From Gemmatimonadota bacterium (GTDB lineage: Bacteria > Gemmatimonadota > Gemmatimonadetes > Palauibacterales > Palauibacteraceae), in contig OZ220691.1 of assembly GCA_965116475.1 (NCBI GenBank), positions 3,168,001 through 3,232,000 on the forward strand: DNA of 64,000 nucleotides, read 5' to 3'. The first letter of the stretch is position 1. Each line of letters opens with the position of its first letter. The notes below the pieces were generated by a model. The model saw nothing but the letters and a program-made list of their open reading frames with translations, was not told the DNA's origin and did no database searches. The position numbers and the translations under genes were made by a program. Positions 1 through 8,872 of the stretch are shown in pieces.

Positions 1-1282
1 GATACCGGGGCCGGATCTCGGGCCGGTAGGTGTTCACGTAGTACGTGCCCGGGCGCGACCCATCCGGTGCCGGCTCGCGGTAGTAGGCGAGCACGCTCTG
101 CGGCGCTTCGTAGAGCGGGATCGGACGGATCACCATCTCCGTGCGCGGCGTGGTGCCGAACCAGTCGGGCATGACGAGGGCGGCCCGCGCGTACGCCTCC
201 TCGGCCATCTGCACGATCTCACCGGGCCAGCGGAAGAACATCTCGGGGTCCGACCGCAGCCGCTCTTGAATCTCCTTCAGCTCGGAGGCGCCGAGGACTT
301 CCCGTCCAAGCGTCCGCAGTTCGTCGTGGATCCTCTCCAGCTCCGCCAGACCCCGCGCGTGGATCTCGGCCGGGGTCAGCTCGAGCGTCGTGAAGTTGCG
401 GATCATCGCCTCGTAGCAGGCGGCGCCTCCCGGCAGACCGGAGAGTCCGATCTCCGCGCCGGTGCGCGAATGCGGATAGAGTTCGTCGCGCAGGAAATCG
501 CGGAGTCTCGCATACGCCGGCCGAATGCGCTCGGAGGCGGCCTCGCGGATGCCGGCCCGGAAGTCGTGGCGCGTCCCCTCGGGCCACGCATCGAGGCGCG
601 TCCCCGCCGGGGCGTAGATCGGCCATTCCTCCACCGGCCGTTCGAGGAGGGCGTCGAGCTGCACGATCGTCCGGTTCACCGACGCGCGCGCCGCGACCCG
701 CCCCGTCTCGAGGCCGGTACGGAGATTCGAGATGTAGTCGTCGATGTAGTCCGCGAACGCGTTCCAGCGCCGGATCATGCGCTCGCCGTCGACCGGCGTC
801 TCGAGCGGCTGGGCGCCCACGATGTTGAGGAAATCGAGCTGGAATCCCTCGCGGTGGTCCACCACCCACACCTCGAGATCGCACGTCTGCTCGGCGATTT
901 CCGCCGAAAGCTGGTGGTCGAGCGCGAGATAGGTGAGCCGGTGGTCGGGCGGCAGCGACGGGAGATCGATGGCCGCGAGGGCGTCCGAGAGGGCACGAAC
1001 CTCGCGGCGGCGGTTGTTGCGCCCCGACGGCGAGAGGTCGCGCACGCGGTCGCTGAGGCGGTGTTCCCCGAGATAGGTCGCCTGCAGCGGGTTCCAGGAG
1101 AGGTAGGCGTCCCAGAAGCGGTCGCTGAGCGCCGACAGGTCGCTGGGCGGGGCGGTGTCCGGGTCCGCCGTCTCGGCCGACCCCCGCTCGCAGGCCGCGA
1201 TCCCGCCCGCCATGAGGACCACGGCCACGATCCGGCCCGCCCCTGCGCCCGTACGTCGGCTCCTGTCGCGGGTTGACGTCAT
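1..1282 (-). CDS. DUF885 family lipoprotein (partial; 3' end runs off the window start)
   Basis: Not in the ORF track; translated by hand from ATG at 1282: MTSTRDRSRR...VAVVLMAGGIAAC (lipobox), LSDRFWDAYLSWNPLQATYLGEHR, ...AYYREPAPDGSRPGTYYVNTYRP, which are DUF885-type motifs. Confidence 0.85.
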   Translation of the reverse strand, partial: MTSTRDRSRRTGAGAGRIVAVVLMAGGIAACERGSAETADPDTAPPSDLSALSDRFWDAYLSWNPLQATYLGEHRLSDRVRDLSPSGRNNRRREVRALSDALAAIDLPSLPPDHRLTYLALDHQLSAEIAEQTCDLEVWVVDHREGFQLDFLNIVGAQPLETPVDGERMIRRWNAFADYIDDYISNLRTGLETGRVAARASVNRTIVQLDALLERPVEEWPIYAPAGTRLDAWPEGTRHDFRAGIREAASERIRPAYARLRDFLRDELYPHSRTGAEIGLSGLPGGAACYEAMIRNFTTLELTPAEIHARGLAELERIHDELRTLGREVLGASELKEIQERLRSDPEMFFRWPGEIVQMAEEAYARAALVMPDWFGTTPRTEMVIRPIPLYEAPQSVLAYYREPAPDGSRPGTYYVNTYRPEIRPRY

Positions 1283-1420: not shown

Positions 1421-1891
1421 GTGTCCGAACCGTTTTATACAGCCCGCGCGCGTCTCGAGAAGGTCGAGGGCGTCCATCGCCGGGCCCACCTCGAAGAGGG
1501 GACCGAGATCGACTTCGGCGTCCACGGACCCATCAAGTCCCACTACCGGATCGACGCGAAGGACCTCCCGCTCCCCGTCGACTACCAGGTGGCCGCGACC
1601 GGCGCCTGAATGCTGGGCACGCTCAACGGCGCACTGGAAGTGCGCGGCATCCGCCTGGCCCCCGAAGACATCACCGCCGAAGCGGAGGGGATCAACCGCC
1701 TCCGCGACCGCATGCCCACGCTGGAGGAGATCATCGTCCACTACCGGCTCCGCATCCCCGCCGAAACCCGGGAGACGGTGGAGCGCGCGCTCGCCAGCCA
1801 CGGCGCGAAGTGCCCCACCGCCCGTTCGCTCGAGGGTGCGATCAAGGTGACGTGGACCGCCGACATCGAAGAGACACCGGCCCGGTCGTGA
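1421..1891 (+). CDS. OsmC/Ohr-family protein, probable selenoprotein (in-frame TGA at 1607-1609 read as Sec)
   Basis: ORFs 1307..1609 and 1610..1891 are in one frame separated only by TGA. The joined protein reads PVDYQVAATGA-U-MLGTLNGALEVRGI...HGAKCPTARSL, with TGA at the first catalytic Cys position of OsmC. GTG start at 1421 follows a purine-rich RBS. Confidence 0.85.
1610..1650 (+). promoter_or_regulatory. Bacterial SECIS-like hairpin
   Basis: GCGCAC(1629-1634)-TGGAA-GTGCGC(1640-1645) is a perfect stem with a G-containing loop starting 25 nt after the TGA. Lower stem ATGCT(1610-1614)/GGCAT(1646-1650). Confidence 0.7.
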
Positions 1892-1905: not shown

Positions 1906-2115
1906 ATGGTCCGCGTGTTCGAGGCGTGGGACGAGAGCGAATTCCTCGCGGCGAGGCTCGCCCTCGAGGCCGGAGACATCCCCTTCAGGGTCGAAGGGGA
2001 GTTCGCACCCGTTTCCTGGGGCCCGACCGCGGCCGCGAAAGTCCTCCGCGTACCCGCGAGCCGGCACGAAGAAGCCAGGCAAGTGATCAGCGACTCTCTC
2101 GATAGAGACCCGTAA
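1906..2115 (+). CDS. DUF2007 / putative signal-transducing small protein
   Basis: MVRVFEAWDESEFLAARLALEAGDIPFRVEGE...LRVPASRHEEARQVI fits the DUF2007 pattern. An alternative in-frame GTG at 1888 overlaps the OsmC stop. Confidence 0.7.
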   Translation: MVRVFEAWDESEFLAARLALEAGDIPFRVEGEFAPVSWGPTAAAKVLRVPASRHEEARQVISDSLDRDP

Positions 2116-2365: not shown

Positions 2366-3895
2366 GTGAGCTTTCGGCCCCTGGACGTTGCGGCGTTCGC
2401 GGGCTTTCTGTTGCTGGTCGTCGGGGTGTCGCTGTACGCGTCGCGGGGGCGGCGCGATGCGGCGGGGTACTTTCTCGCCGGGCGCAACCTGCCGTGGTGG
2501 CTGATCGGGTTTTCGCTCATCGCCTCGAACATCTCGACGGAGCACTTCGTGGGGATGGCGGGGCGGGGCTACGACATCGGCCTCGCGATCGCGAGCTACG
2601 AGTGGATGGCGGCCGTCACCCTCGTCCTCGTCGGACTCTTCTTCCTGCCCCGGTTCCTCGCGGCCGGGATCTACACCATCCCGGAGTACCTCGAGTTCCG
2701 CTACGACGTGGGCACGCGGACGCTGATGGCGGGCTTCATCCTCGCGGCGTACGTGCTCGTGGCCCTTGCGACCGTGCTGTACTCGGGCGCGCTCGCCCTG
2801 GAGTCGATCTTCGGGCTCGACGTGTCGGCCGGGATCTGGCTCATCGGCGTGCTCGCGGGCGGGTACACGATCTACGGCGGGCTCAAGGCGGTCGTGTGGT
2901 CGGACCTCCTCCAGGGCGTGGCGCTCCTCCTCGGCGGCGTGCTCGTCACCGTACTGGGGTTCCGGGCCCTGGGCGGCATCGGCCCCTTCCTCGAGGCGGC
3001 GGACGGGAAACTCCACACCGTCCTCCCCTGGAACCACCCGGAGATGCCGTGGCTTGCCGTGTTCATCGGCGGCCTGTGGATTCCCAACATCTTCTACTGG
3101 GGACTGAACCAGTTCATCACGCAGCGCACGCTGGCGGCGCGCAGCCTGGCGGACGGCCAGCGCGGGCTCTTCCTGGCGGGCTTCATCAAGCTGTTCATCC
3201 CGTTCATCATCATCTTTCCCGGGATCATGGCGGCGGAGCTGTTCGCCGATCAGGTGACGAACCCGGACCAGGCCTACCCGGTGATGATGCGGGAGCTCCT
3301 CCCGGCGGGGCTGACGGGGATCATGTTCGCGGCGCTGTTCGGGGCCGTGATGAGTTCGCTCGACTCGATGCTGAACTCGGCGGCGACGATCTTCAGCGTG
3401 GATCTCTACAGGCGGCACCTGCGGCCCGAGGCCTCTTCACGCCGGCTGATGGTGGTGGGACGGGTGACGACGGGCGTGCTCGTGGTGGTGGCGTGCCTGT
3501 GGGCGCCGGTCGTGGCGCGGGCGCCGAGCGTGTTCGAGTACATCCAGATGTTCTGGGGGTTCATCTCGCCGGGGATCGTGGCCGCGTTCCTGTTCGGTAT
3601 CTTCGCGCCGCGCACGCCGCCCGCCGCCGCCTTCGGGGGGATGGTGCTGGGGATCCCGGTCTACCTCCTCCTCCTGTGGCTGCTGCCGGAAGTCGCGTTC
3701 CTCCACCACATGGCGATCACCTTCCTCGCGATCAGCGCGTACATCGTGGTCGTGACCCGTGCGCGTCCGCTCGATGCTCCTCGCCGGCTGCCGCGCGCCG
3801 CGGACGGCGTGGATCTGACGCCCGCCCCGCGCGCCGGACTCCGGGCCGGAGGCGTGATCGCGGGAGCGGCCGTCCTCTACATCGTCTTCTGGTAA
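2366..3895 (+). CDS. Sodium:solute symporter (SSS/SLC5, sugar-type)
   Basis: YFLAGRNLPWWLIGFSLIASNISTEHFVG, GGLKAVVWSD, YWGLNQFITQR; many TM segments. Confidence 0.93.
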   Translation: MSFRPLDVAAFAGFLLLVVGVSLYASRGRRDAAGYFLAGRNLPWWLIGFSLIASNISTEHFVGMAGRGYDIGLAIASYEWMAAVTLVLVGLFFLPRFLAAGIYTIPEYLEFRYDVGTRTLMAGFILAAYVLVALATVLYSGALALESIFGLDVSAGIWLIGVLAGGYTIYGGLKAVVWSDLLQGVALLLGGVLVTVLGFRALGGIGPFLEAADGKLHTVLPWNHPEMPWLAVFIGGLWIPNIFYWGLNQFITQRTLAARSLADGQRGLFLAGFIKLFIPFIIIFPGIMAAELFADQVTNPDQAYPVMMRELLPAGLTGIMFAALFGAVMSSLDSMLNSAATIFSVDLYRRHLRPEASSRRLMVVGRVTTGVLVVVACLWAPVVARAPSVFEYIQMFWGFISPGIVAAFLFGIFAPRTPPAAAFGGMVLGIPVYLLLLWLLPEVAFLHHMAITFLAISAYIVVVTRARPLDAPRRLPRAADGVDLTPAPRAGLRAGGVIAGAAVLYIVFW

Positions 3896-3907: not shown

Positions 3908-4873
3908 TCACCCCGCGGCGCCGTTGTGGGCGAGGAAGCGTTCGGCGTCGAGGGCGGCCATGCAGCCGGTGCCCGCCGCGGAGACGGCCTGCCGGTAGTA
4001 GTCGTCCATGACGTCGCCGGCCGCGAACACGCCGGGCACGTTCGTCTCCGTGCGCCACGGCGTGGGCATGTCGACGTAGCCGTTCTCCTTGAGGTCGACC
4101 TGGCCCTGCAGGAACGCCGTGTTGGGGATGTGGCCGATGGCCACGAACATCCCGCCCACCTCGACGTCCGACGCCTCGCCCGTCACCGTGTCCCGCAGGC
4201 GGAGGCTGGTGATCGCGTCGTCCCCGAACACCTCCTCCACGGTCCGGTTCCAGAGGAAGCGGATCTTGTCGCTGGCGAAGGCCCGTTCCTGCATGATCTG
4301 CGACGCCCGCAGTTCGTCGCGCCGGTGGATGAGGAGCACTTCGCTCGCGAACTTGGTGAGGTAGAGGGCCTCCTCCATCGCGCTGTCGCCGCCCCCCACG
4401 ACCGCGAGGACCTGGTCCCGGAAGACGGGCAGGGCGCCGTCGCACACCGCGCACGCGGACACCCCGCCGCCGCTCTGCGCGAGCCGCTCCTCACCCGGGA
4501 CGCCGAGCCAGCGCGCGTTGGCGCCCGTGGCCACGATCGCCGTCTCCGCGCGCACTTCCTGGTTCCCTGAAGAACGGAGCAGGAAGGGACGGCTCGAGAA
4601 GTCGACCTCGACGATGTCCTCGGTGAACACGCGCGTGTCGAAACGCAGCGCCTGCTTCTTGAAGTCCAGCATCATGTCGATGCCGCTAACCCCTTCGGGG
4701 AAACCGGGATAGTTCTCCACGTCCGTTGTGAACATGAGCTGTCCACCGGGGATCATGGTGCGGCTCCCGGCACCCTCGAACACGAGGGGATTCAGGCTCG
4801 CTCGGGCCGCGTAAATCGCCGCCGTCCACGCGGCGGGGCCCGAGCCAATGATGACGACGTTTTCTGTACTCAT
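3908..4873 (-). CDS. trxB: Thioredoxin-disulfide reductase
   Basis: [44 protein letters not shown]. Confidence 0.95.
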
Positions 4874-4882
4874 CGCTCCGTA

Positions 4883-5677
4883 TCAGTTCTCGGCGGTGGA
4901 TGACGCATTCTTGGCCCGCGCCGCCTCGGCTTCCCTTCGCCGAACGGCTTCCGCGCGTGCCAGCGCGTCGTCCCGCGCCTGTTTCAAGGCGATCATCACG
5001 TTCTTTATCGAGGGCTCTCCCTCCGGGAACCTGTCCGGAGCCTGTGTCTTTTCCTCCGTCATGGCGCTTCTCCTCGTGGGATCATCCGGGCGGTCGCGCC
5101 GGTCTGCGTCAGCCGCGGTGGGCAACTCTCGGATGCGCCATCCGCTGGGAAGGAGCGGCAGGATGTCATTACGCTCCGACGCGGCGACGAGGATCGGGGA
5201 CCGGCTCGAAGTGTCGTAGACCTGCCATTCGTCTGCAATGGGGCGGTACAACTCGATGAAGTTACCCCAGCTTCGTTCGAACCGACGGCGGGCGACCGGC
5301 TCGGGAATGTCGTGACCGCCCTCGCTGACGCGCTGGGCGACCCGCCTGACGACGTGGTTCGCCGATGGCAGCCGGAGGTAGATCAACCCGATCCGGTACC
5401 CGTGCTGGCGCCACGTATCGAGGCGGCGCGCGTACGATCGGCCGCTGAGGGTCGTCTCGAAGGCGAAGTCCGTCCGTCTCGCGACGTACGATTCCATCCG
5501 CTTCAGCGCGATCCTGCCCGCCCGTTGCGCGGCCTCGTCGGGCGCGTCCGGATTCAGGCGTGCGGCGATTTCGTCGCCGTTCACGAACGGTATCTCCGGT
5601 CCCGCGAACTGCAGATACCGTCGCGAAAACGTCGTCTTGCCGGCCCCGTTCGGACCCGCGATGACCAGCACCTTCAT
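4883..5677 (-). CDS. Zeta-toxin-like P-loop ATPase/kinase with in-frame C-terminal extension
   Basis: ATG at 5677 after GGAGG; MKVLVIAGPNGAGKTT (Walker A), FAFETTLSG, RVSEGGHDIPE. Confidence 0.85.
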   Translation of the reverse strand: MKVLVIAGPNGAGKTTFSRRYLQFAGPEIPFVNGDEIAARLNPDAPDEAAQRAGRIALKRMESYVARRTDFAFETTLSGRSYARRLDTWRQHGYRIGLIYLRLPSANHVVRRVAQRVSEGGHDIPEPVARRRFERSWGNFIELYRPIADEWQVYDTSSRSPILVAASERNDILPLLPSGWRIRELPTAADADRRDRPDDPTRRSAMTEEKTQAPDRFPEGEPSIKNVMIALKQARDDALARAEAVRRREAEAARAKNASSTAEN

Positions 5678-5788
5678 CGGTCCTCCCCAACACCTCATCC
5701 ATGACGACACTCCGTCGGCTGCAAGACAATCTATCGTGGCGGCCGGTCTTGGTTGCGCGGGCGGGGCGCTTGCGGTTTCGTTCGGGTC

Positions 5789-8700
5789 ATGAAAGGACGC
5801 GGACGGGAGACGGGGGACGGAGCGCCGCACGGAGCCCGCTCCGGTGCGGCCGGCGACGCCGGAGTGCAGGGGGGCTCGGGGGCGGACGCGCCGCGCGGGC
5901 GGCCGGTGCTGCGCTCCATCCTGGGGACGGGGCAGCGGCGCTGGCTGAGGTTCGGGCTCGGGGTCGCCGTGTTCATGCTCGCGAACACGCTCTACCTGCT
6001 CGCGAACCGGCTCGCTGACGGGCTGGGGCTGGATTTCTTCGCGGTGGGGGAGAACTCGCTCCCCCAGCTCTTCCAGGCGATGGTGCTCACGCACACCGGG
6101 GTCGGGCTCCTGCTGGCCGCGGTCATGTTCGGGTTCCTCGCGGCGCACCTCCCGACGGTGTGGAAGCGGAAGCACCGCGCGTCGATCCTGACGGGGATCG
6201 GGATGGGGCTCGTGGGCGGCGTCCTCGTCCTCACGGGACTCTTCATCCTCACCGCGGCGGCGAGCCGGGAGAACAGTTGGGCGTGGTGGGCGCACGTGGG
6301 GAGCGCCGTCCTCATCGTCTCCGCCTACGCCGGGCACCGGCTGGTGAGCTACGCGCGTCCGCCGGGCGTACGGGCCTGCCGCTTCGCGCTCGCCACCGGA
6401 GCCGTCCTCGTCGTCCTCGTCGCGTGGCACAGCCTCACGCATCGCGGGCTCCAGCTCACCCCGGAGGCGGAGGCCGCGCTCGCCCAGGGTCTGAACGAAG
6501 GGCCGGGGGGCCGCGACCGCGACGTGTCGCGCTTCGTCGACGTCGACTTCGTGCCGAAAGGCCTCGTGCCGCCTGAGAGTCCGTTCTTCCCGGCCGCGAC
6601 GACGACGAGTACGGGGACGTACCTCCCGTCCCGCATCATCACCCGCACGGAGGCGGGGGAACTCGCCGCACAGACGGCCCGTGAGCGCGCGGCGCGCGTC
6701 CGCTCCGAGGTGGAACGGCGGGGGTTCGCGGCGGACGAACTCATCGGCGCCACCCAGTGCGTGCGCTGCCACCCCGACGTGACGGCCCAGTGGGCGACCT
6801 CCGCGCACCGCTTCGCCTCCTTCAACAACCCCTTCTATACCGCGACGATCGAGGACATGCGGGAGGGGTCGCTGGAGGCCGGGCCGGAGGTCATCGCGCA
6901 CCTGCGGGAGTTCGGGCTCGAGCCGGACGCGGCGGGGCGCGTGAAGAGCAAGTGGTGCAGCGGGTGTCACGATCCGGCGCTCATGCTGGCCGGGGCGATG
7001 GACGCGCCCATCGACCCCGCCACCGTCGAGGCGCAGGCGGGGCTCACCTGTCTCGCCTGCCACGCGATCGACCGCATCCACGACAACACGGGGAACGGCA
7101 ACTACAACATCGCCGACGAGCAGGAGGACCCCTACCTGTTCGCCGACGCCGAGGCCGGCACGCTCGGCGCCTACCTGCACGACGCGGCGCTCAAGGCGAA
7201 GCCCTCCGTCCACATGGGGCAGCTCCTGAAGCCGGTCCATTCGACGTCGGAGTTCTGCGCCACCTGCCACAAGGTGAGCCTCACGGAGCCGGTGAATAAC
7301 TACCGCTGGCTGCGGGGACAGAACGAGTACGACGCGTGGCACGACAGCGGGGTGGCGCGCAACGCCTCGCGCACCTTCTACCTGCCCGCGGCCGCGCGCG
7401 TGTGCCAGGACTGTCACATGCCGTGGGAGGAGGCGCCGCTGGGCGATGTCTCGGCCGAGAACGGGCGCGTGCGCTCGCACCGGTTCCTCGCGGTGAATAC
7501 GGCGCTCCCCTTCCTGCGGGGGGACACGGCGACGATCCGCCGCATCGAGGAGTTCCTGCGGGACGAGAAGCTGCGGGTCGACATCTTCGCCATCCGGCGA
7601 GGTCCCGACGACGAACCCGAGATGGGGCTCGATCTCTCGCCTCCGAGCGTGTCTCCGGGGGAGACGGTGATGTTCGAGGTCGTGGTCCGGAACCAGGGCG
7701 TGGGCCACACCTTCCCCGGCGGAACGAACGACTCCAACGAGGGCTGGCTCGAATTCGAACTGGTGGACGCCGAGGGCCGGCGTATCGCGATCAGCGGCGA
7801 GATCGGCGCGGACGGGCACCTCGATCCCACGGCGCACTTCTTCAAGTCGGTGATCCTCGACCGCGAGGGGCGGCCGATCCGGAAGCGGAACGCGCAGGAC
7901 ATCCACGTGACGGCGGCGGTGAACCTGATCGGCCCCGGGAGCGCGGACGTGGCCCACTACCGGATCACGCTGCCGCCCGACCTGCCCGAGGGCTCGCTGA
8001 CGGCGCGGGCGCGCCTCCTGTGGCGCAAGTTCGACCGCGCCTACACGGAGTTCGCCTTCGGCGCCAACCCGCAGGGGTTCGCGGAGTTCGACGACGTTCC
8101 CGACCTGCCGATCACCGAGATCGCCAGCGACGAGGTCACGATCGGCGTCGGCGGCCGCGTGGATCCGGTCTCGGCCGAGGCGCAGGACGAGGCGCGGGAC
8201 GAGGAGATCTGGGTCCGCTACAACGACTACGGGATCGCCCTCCTCCAGGAGGGGAACGACCGGCTCGCGGAGCTCCCGTTCGCGCGGGTGGCCGAGTTCT
8301 TCCCGGACCGGGTGGACGGGCCGCTCAACCTGGCGCGCATGGCGCTCATCGCCGGCAACCTCGACGACGCCTTCGACAACCTCGAGCGGGCCGAAACCAT
8401 CGAACCGGGCAACCCGCGCGTGGCGTGGGTGTGGGGCGGCGCGCACCAGGAGGACGGCGCGTACGATGCCTCCGAGGCGGCGTACCTTGCGGTGCTCGAC
8501 GCCTTCCCGGAGGATCGCGAGGCTTGGTTCCAGTTGGGACGGACGCGATACCTTGATCGGCGCTACGAGGCGGCGGTCGAGGCGTTCGACCGGACGCTGG
8601 CCATCGATCCCGAACACCGGCAGGCGCACTACAGCCGCATGCTCAGCCTGCGGGCGCTGGGACGCGACGACGAGGCGGCGCTGGGCGAGGCGGCGTTCGA

Positions 8701-8872
8701 GCGTTACCGGATCGACGAGGCGGCGCAGGCGATCACGAGGGCCTACAGGGCGGAGAACCCCGGCGTGAACCTGATGGCACAGGACATCCACACGCACGAA
8801 CTGCGGCCGATCGCACCGGCGGGAGGCACGGTGTCTCCGGATGGCCCGGCGAGCGGCCCCGGAGGTCGATGA
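5789..8872 (+). CDS. Membrane-anchored multiheme cytochrome c (5 CxxCH) with C-terminal TPR repeats
   Basis: N-terminal TM helices; CVRCH, CSGCH, CLACH, CATCH, CQDCH; GHTFPGG motif; C-terminal TPR-like helices (AWFQLGRTRY, ALAIDPEH-type). Confidence 0.85.
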   Translation: MKGRGRETGDGAPHGARSGAAGDAGVQGGSGADAPRGRPVLRSILGTGQRRWLRFGLGVAVFMLANTLYLLANRLADGLGLDFFAVGENSLPQLFQAMVLTHTGVGLLLAAVMFGFLAAHLPTVWKRKHRASILTGIGMGLVGGVLVLTGLFILTAAASRENSWAWWAHVGSAVLIVSAYAGHRLVSYARPPGVRACRFALATGAVLVVLVAWHSLTHRGLQLTPEAEAALAQGLNEGPGGRDRDVSRFVDVDFVPKGLVPPESPFFPAATTTSTGTYLPSRIITRTEAGELAAQTARERAARVRSEVERRGFAADELIGATQCVRCHPDVTAQWATSAHRFASFNNPFYTATIEDMREGSLEAGPEVIAHLREFGLEPDAAGRVKSKWCSGCHDPALMLAGAMDAPIDPATVEAQAGLTCLACHAIDRIHDNTGNGNYNIADEQEDPYLFADAEAGTLGAYLHDAALKAKPSVHMGQLLKPVHSTSEFCATCHKVSLTEPVNNYRWLRGQNEYDAWHDSGVARNASRTFYLPAAARVCQDCHMPWEEAPLGDVSAENGRVRSHRFLAVNTALPFLRGDTATIRRIEEFLRDEKLRVDIFAIRRGPDDEPEMGLDLSPPSVSPGETVMFEVVVRNQGVGHTFPGGTNDSNEGWLEFELVDAEGRRIAISGEIGADGHLDPTAHFFKSVILDREGRPIRKRNAQDIHVTAAVNLIGPGSADVAHYRITLPPDLPEGSLTARARLLWRKFDRAYTEFAFGANPQGFAEFDDVPDLPITEIASDEVTIGVGGRVDPVSAEAQDEARDEEIWVRYNDYGIALLQEGNDRLAELPFARVAEFFPDRVDGPLNLARMALIAGNLDDAFDNLERAETIEPGNPRVAWVWGGAHQEDGAYDASEAAYLAVLDAFPEDREAWFQLGRTRYLDRRYEAAVEAFDRTLAIDPEHRQAHYSRMLSLRALGRDDEAALGEAAFERYRIDEAAQAITRAYRAENPGVNLMAQDIHTHELRPIAPAGGTVSPDGPASGPGGR

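Follow-up and report, generated by a model that had tools for sequence, protein, structure and literature searches.

What is a TGA codon doing in the middle of a reading frame that is open on both sides of it? The question is raised by positions 1421 to 1891 of a 64,000-nucleotide stretch of DNA that was analysed as a whole and is called the window here (C1:3168001-3232000); it belongs to the genome of a Gemmatimonadota bacterium, 3.62 Mb in a single contig with 69.4% GC. An earlier note on this DNA had seen two ORFs in one frame, split by a lone TGA, and had proposed that they encode one protein of the OsmC family in which the UGA is decoded as selenocysteine (Sec). The sequence is as described there: the TGA at 1607-1609 is the sole in-frame break before the terminal stop, itself a TGA (1889-1891), and the join gives 156 aa, the normal OsmC-like length that had been anticipated, with the second Cys intact.

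The reading frame and its relatives

The elements of the gene that matter for what follows are these:

1421..1891, plus strand: predicted OsmC/Ohr-family selenoprotein gene, 156 codons, with a GTG start, an internal Sec codon and a terminal TGA
1607..1609, plus strand: UGA codon for the predicted Sec residue U63, in the column where OsmC/Ohr proteins have their first (peroxidatic) Cys
1610..1614, plus strand: ATGCT, 5′ half of the lower stem proposed in the earlier note, its pairing to 1646-1650 being restricted to this genus
1629..1645, plus strand: putative SECIS apical hairpin, made of a 5′ arm (1629-1635), a GGA loop (1636-1638) and a 3′ arm (1639-1645)
1646..1650, plus strand: GGCAT, 3′ half of that lower stem, which the family as a whole does not conserve
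1811..1813, plus strand: TGC, encoding the resolving (second) Cys C131 of an invariant KCP motif (AKCP here)

Because the match of the joined protein to the Pfam OsmC family (PF02566; 49 bits, cut-off 27.5; residues 49-145) crosses the TGA, and because the 62-aa N-terminal piece alone has no Pfam match, we consider that there is one protein here rather than two. Its N-terminus lines up with full-length homologs beginning MSEPFY, and an ATG, GTG or TTG start is found at the same position in 27 of 28 relatives. The residues around the predicted Sec read ATGA-U-MLGTLNGALEVR. Scanning the window for in-frame TGAs between high-GC3 flanks gave six sites, only one of which, 1607, appeared protein-like when judged by eye.

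Which residue do the homologs have at this point? The 120 best database matches comprise 20 full-length proteins (152-161 aa) and 100 C-terminal fragments (89-123 aa), the latter starting right after the TGA. The check suggested by the earlier note, an alignment of homologs at the TGA column, gives Cys in 18 of the 20 full-length proteins, Gly in one and Trp in one.

Is the TGA a peculiarity of this strain? It is not. Among 40 genomes of relatives, an orthologue with one in-frame TGA is present in 23 of the 24 that belong to the same genus and in 2 of the 16 from the other sampled family of the order, and the 28 copies that we extracted from relatives all align with their TGA at one column, inside GG-U-[M/L]LGTLNGALE. 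A scan with one genome per species gave the TGA at this column in 80 of 80 loci (the best 80 of 220 relatives), whose record titles name Gemmatimonadota, Longimicrobiales and Acidobacteriota MAGs. When a Cys-form query was run against 401 genomes of the phylum, 104 genomes were matched, with exactly one TGA in 142 of 142 match rows. Furthermore, 45 of 50 metagenome loci covering the column have TGA and three have TGC; the last two are out of register, one with the TGA one codon later and the other a weak partial match. The relatives that keep the TGA extend down to about 35% identity.

This conservation bears directly on the simplest alternative, namely that we are dealing with a pseudogene, produced by a strain-specific nonsense mutation or by a sequencing error. 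An indel error is indeed probable in at least one place of the assembly, namely selD (see below), but the same TGA recurs in every set of relatives just described, and its flanks are under purifying selection, with a GC3 of 0.94 and 0.92 and many invariant residues on both sides. We regard the pseudogene or error explanation as refuted by conservation, with next to no probability left to it.

UGA decoding and the downstream hairpin

A Sec-decoded gene implies, as the earlier note had pointed out, Sec machinery elsewhere in the genome. It was found at the following places:

C1:3481208-3482539: selA (491 bits)
C1:3523523-3525385: selB (373 bits)
C1:3530731-3530826: tRNA-Sec, anticodon tca (Rfam, 79.7 bits)
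C1:176319-177246, minus strand: selD (236+118 bits), of the Sec-containing type, with a TGA of its own in SHGAG-U-ACK

In this assembly selD is split by a frameshift near C1:176969-176974. The selD genes of five of five relatives are intact, in one frame with one TGA, and in two public sequencing runs every contig that covers this site leaves out one base (35.4 of 35.4 depth in run X22, 4.93 of 4.93 in run X1), the omitted base being split over two adjacent placements. The frameshift is therefore likely, though not proven, to be an assembly indel, in which case other indel errors may exist elsewhere in the assembly.

Could the UGA be read without selenium, by a near-cognate tRNA or through reassignment to Trp, Gly or Cys (code 4 or 25)? 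The Trp and the Gly found at the column in two database homologs would favor such a reading. However, both rows fall among Sec forms in a FastTree phylogeny, and they may each be a TGA that a gene caller translated under code 25 or 4, which would fit this position. TGA is the commonest stop of the genome, ending 700 of 1090 long high-GC3 ORFs, and it is also the terminal stop of the selenoprotein gene and of 23 of its 28 relatives; on these counts genetic code 4 or 25 was rejected for this genome. Nor does decoding without selenium account for the presence of a complete Sec pathway and of a SECIS-like hairpin, and we consider it very improbable.

According to PMC1088965, a bacterial SECIS is a hairpin located shortly after the UGA, with a G in its small apical loop. 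The perfect hairpin announced by the earlier note, GCGCAC-TGGAA-GTGCGC, is present at 1629-1645, 19 nt past the TGA, and together with a flanking U-A pair it makes a 7-bp stem closed by a GGA loop, in agreement with this description. We aligned 71 sequences (70 distinct) from the TGA, columns being counted from there. The RNAalifold consensus is exactly this 7-bp stem (columns 23-29 with 33-39), and over the 70 distinct sequences 98.6% of the upper-stem cells are paired. At pair 27-35, 55 sequences have A-U and 13 have G-C, and pair 26-36 varies as well, with U-A and G-U forms. Double changes affect two pairs and 15 cells; in 500 shuffles, neither this number of double changes nor the covariation score was ever attained. 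Sliding the partner arm by 1-3 columns lowers the pairing to 25-62%. The metagenome loci add further compensated variants, such as GCGUGC/GCACGC. Finally, perfect hairpins with a 7-bp stem and a 3-nt loop occur at 136 per Mb of genome, so that about 0.003 would be expected in a 21-nt start window.

The codons that form the hairpin tell the same story. An Ala codon, GCA, supplies the A of pair 27-35 with its third base. GCA makes up only 3.1% of the Ala codons of the genome; rare as it is, it is retained in every sequence that has GUG as the partner codon, and it turns to GCG when the partner Val is replaced by Ala (GCG). A Leu CUG codon ends in the loop G (column 30), which is near-invariant in Sec forms even though CUC is commoner than CUG among the Leu codons of the genome (53% vs 39%). 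All three Cys-form metagenome loci have CUC at the loop Leu. In the DNA of these Cys forms (three only), the hairpin is absent from two, and the third, L165, still forms seven pairs using wobbles; with so few sequences the contrast with the Sec forms is not a firm one.

Single-sequence folding gave no such signal. The fold is not better than that of shuffled sequences for 1600-1670 (z +0.88) or for 1607-1663 (z -0.43), and most related sequences range from z -0.43 to +0.21. Because this test does not discriminate at 69% GC, we did not count folding energy as support; for both the TGA and the upper stem, it is the comparison of sequences that we take as decisive. An Rfam scan of 1300-2000, with E values up to 10, gave no SECIS family, its three matches being due to chance.

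The earlier note had also drawn a lower stem, ATGCT/GGCAT, below the apical hairpin. Both halves are present and can pair, but the element is not conserved in the family: 67.1% of its cells are paired, with zero compensatory changes, and pair 6-42 is formed in 13 of the 70 distinct sequences. Column 4 is not A in 23 of these 70, which have a Leu codon (CTG or CTA) right after the Sec codon. The lower stem was thus rejected as a conserved element and is best described as a genus-level feature. Across the same 70 sequences, RNAalifold yielded no conserved lower stem, no bulged U and no pairing in the 19-nt spacer. The SECIS of the E. coli fdhF type is alike in being an in-coding hairpin soon after the UGA with a G in a small apical loop; it differs in that only a 7-bp stem and a 3-nt loop are conserved here.

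One clade departs from this scheme. In four loci (L079, L085, L104 and L120) GALAVR replaces GALEVR and the standard hairpin is lost. L085, L104 and L120 have a longer hairpin beginning at the same start, and the Sec-form L079 has none at the usual place (about 20-50 nt after the TGA). SECIS turnover may be at work in this clade.

The codon that follows the TGA is also relevant to the possibility of a split gene, in which translation would terminate at the TGA and re-initiate at an ATG, a 62-aa and a 93-aa chain forming an OsmC-like fold jointly. In this genome an ATG (1610-1612) directly abuts the TGA, gene callers do predict the 93-aa ORF, and the 100 database fragments mentioned above have the corresponding size. 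Nevertheless, the Leu codon found there in 23 of the 70 sequences offers no such ATG, the residue lost at the break would be precisely the catalytic one, for which homologs have Cys, and neither the conserved hairpin nor the Sec machinery would have an explanation. A split gene is thus extremely improbable in our opinion.

The Sec/Cys column, the conservation of the TGA, the covarying hairpin and the Sec machinery support, at the level of sequence, the proposal that the gene is Sec-decoded: 1421-1891 very probably encodes a 156-residue thiol peroxidase of the OsmC/Ohr fold, in which Sec is predicted to replace the first catalytic Cys. Following the established bacterial pathway, SelB with Sec-tRNA(Sec) would bind the 7-bp, GGA-loop hairpin while the ribosome sits at UGA 1607-1609, and Sec would be put in at this codon instead of termination.

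Predicted chemistry and genomic context

What would a Sec residue do at this position? An AlphaFold2 (AF2) model built from 20 homologs has a pLDDT of 95.8 and a pTM of 0.88. The top PDB matches of this model in Foldseek are Ohr and OsmC proteins, among them 6ebg (E 2.1e-9), 2onf (TM 0.78/0.86), 1qwi, 1n2f and 1ukk, with E values of about 1e-8 to 1e-9. In a sequence alignment with the OsmC of Thermus thermophilus (1ukk), U63 falls on the Cys of AAHAGCF and C131 on that of the CP motif; C131 and P132 are invariant in the homolog alignment. The first Cys of Ohr/OsmC enzymes is the peroxidatic one. The distance from U63 to C131 is 68 residues, and a catalytic Cys pair about 60 residues apart is given as the hallmark of the family in PMC5384416. 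As described there, oxidation turns the peroxidatic Cys into a sulfenic acid, which is then resolved by the second Cys, and the enzyme is reduced by lipoyl groups; a catalytic Glu and a catalytic Arg are conserved in Ohr/OsmC proper.

By analogy with this Ohr/OsmC chemistry (PMC5384416), the selenolate of U63 would attack an organic hydroperoxide; the resulting selenenic acid would be resolved by C131, giving a selenenylsulfide, and a dithiol donor, either a lipoyl protein or thioredoxin, would re-reduce the U63-C131 bond. We infer peroxidase activity without being assured of it, and with less certainty than Sec insertion, because Val or Ile occupies the column of the canonical catalytic Glu (that of PEEL), and an invariant Asp, D54, comes right after it. 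R20 is invariant and lies near the β1-β2 turn, where strand 2 begins, as it does in Ohr, and is at most a candidate catalytic Arg. The cut-offs of the subfamily models TIGR03562 (OsmC; 14.2 bits, cut-off 85.8) and TIGR03563 (17.4 bits, cut-off 166) are not reached. With respect to the Ohr/OsmC thiol (lipoyl-dependent) peroxidases 6ebg, 1n2f, 1qwi and 1ukk, the predicted protein thus shares the fold and the two redox positions, and differs by the predicted Sec in place of the first Cys, by the Val or Ile of the Glu column and by its failure to match TIGR03562.

The genome carries a second OsmC-like selenoprotein paralog at G000:C1:1724156-1724620, on the plus strand (L052:1501-1965). It has 154 aa and about 34% identity, its U65 lies within GG-U-LAGTFGGALEARG, and its hairpin is the same, in the G-C form (GCGCGCUGGAAGCGCGC). 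A TGA-bearing counterpart of this paralog is found in most genomes of the genus, with one TGA each.

Around the selenoprotein gene, the window contains the following neighbours:

2..1282, minus strand: divergent DUF885 gene (PF05960, 249 bits), which runs off the window start
1906..2115, plus strand: small ORF of 69 aa, no Pfam family, 15 nt past the selenoprotein gene
2366-3895: sodium:solute symporter gene, conserved among close relatives only
3908-4873, minus strand: thioredoxin-reductase-like flavoprotein gene (Pyr_redox_2, CAVC motif), 2 kb from the selenoprotein gene, likewise conserved among close relatives only

Among these neighbours only DUF885 recurs: it adjoins 25 of the 80 related loci (best 80 of 220), distant ones at 43-45% identity included. 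The 69-aa ORF is probably co-transcribed with the selenoprotein gene; it lies downstream, at 82-91% identity, in 11 of the 80 loci (best of 220), all of them close relatives. The thioredoxin-reductase-like gene was considered as a clue to the reductant and led to no conclusion, such a gene occurring in the 2-kb flanks of 4 of the 80 loci only, two of these being weak matches. Further on, a 1304-aa ORF on the minus strand (4883-8797) is largely a high-GC artefact, the C-terminal part of which resembles, by reading, a P-loop kinase or zeta-toxin-like protein (MKVLVIAGPNGAGKTT...).

Relation to known OsmC-like selenoproteins

OsmC-like selenoproteins are known, as the earlier note stated, and their description in the literature goes back to 2005. 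Zhang, Fomenko and Gladyshev described one in the Sargasso Sea data, with 3 sequences, assigned to COG1765 and PF02566 and carrying the motif UxxT (PMC1088965); 5 sequences were reported in the GOS study of 2008 (PMC2398784), and the family is listed in a 2026 review (PMC13188914). Going by these descriptions only, the 2005 protein and ours are alike in having Sec at a redox Cys, Cys homologs and a hairpin just past the UGA with a loop G. They differ in the motif, which is U-[M/L]-L-G-T here (UxxGT), with the T four residues after the Sec. They also differ in abundance, since the 2005 and 2008 proteins were rare (3 and 5 sequences) and ours is found in 104 of 401 Gemmatimonadota genomes. The NCBIfam family NF041052, 'OsmC-related (seleno)protein', belongs to the same superfamily and its model permits Sec at the catalytic position, but neither the selenoprotein (21.1 bits) nor its paralog (14.6 bits) is a member (cut-off 95). 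The best match of this model in the whole genome (28.8 bits) is a different gene without a stop.

The protein may belong to a separate, mostly Sec-containing subfamily. A FastTree phylogeny of 142 distinct sequences contains 119 Sec, 21 Cys, 1 Gly and 1 Trp forms, and the Cys forms fall into two or three clusters nested among Sec forms; this quick tree, the root of which is not established, suggests that Sec is the ancestral state of the subfamily and that the Cys forms are later replacements. A broader reading, to which we give somewhat less than an even chance as a whole, is that of an undescribed branch of OsmC/Ohr, made of two paralogous clades, with GG-U-[M/L]-L-G-T, an Asp by the Glu column and a Sec that is ancestral and near-universal. 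Such a branch would be common in Gemmatimonadota, present in Acidobacteriota too and missed by the Sec-aware models, and because these models miss it, it would be stored publicly as hundreds of fragments of 89-100 aa. There is no new principle in this, since thiol peroxidases with Sec as the peroxidatic residue, and OsmC-like selenoproteins among them, are already established.

Standard pipelines do mis-call the gene, as had been predicted: public annotation holds truncations of about 93 aa, and for this gene, its paralog and their relatives alike the entries are 'OsmC family' or hypothetical fragments of 89-123 aa, which prevail among the best 120 database matches. The closest named relatives are MAGs titled Candidatus Palauibacter, Gemmatimonadota bacterium or Gemmatimonadetes bacterium, and the sequencing runs with near-identical DNA bear sponge, coral or marine metagenome labels. 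A search combining the phylum name with selenoprotein, judged by titles and the start of abstracts, gave no paper on Gemmatimonadota selenoproteins, and 'Gemmatimonad' is absent from the 2026 review (PMC13188914).

The mis-annotation conceals the catalytic residue of the predicted enzyme and leads to an undercount of selenium use in Gemmatimonadota, and a Sec-aware profile for the subfamily would mend it. If the branch is truly distinct, its minimal SECIS, with 7 bp, a GGA triloop and a 19-nt spacer, would be a natural test case for SelB recognition in Gemmatimonadota and Acidobacteriota. For the phylum itself, the result adds a widespread predicted peroxidase that nearly always contains Sec.
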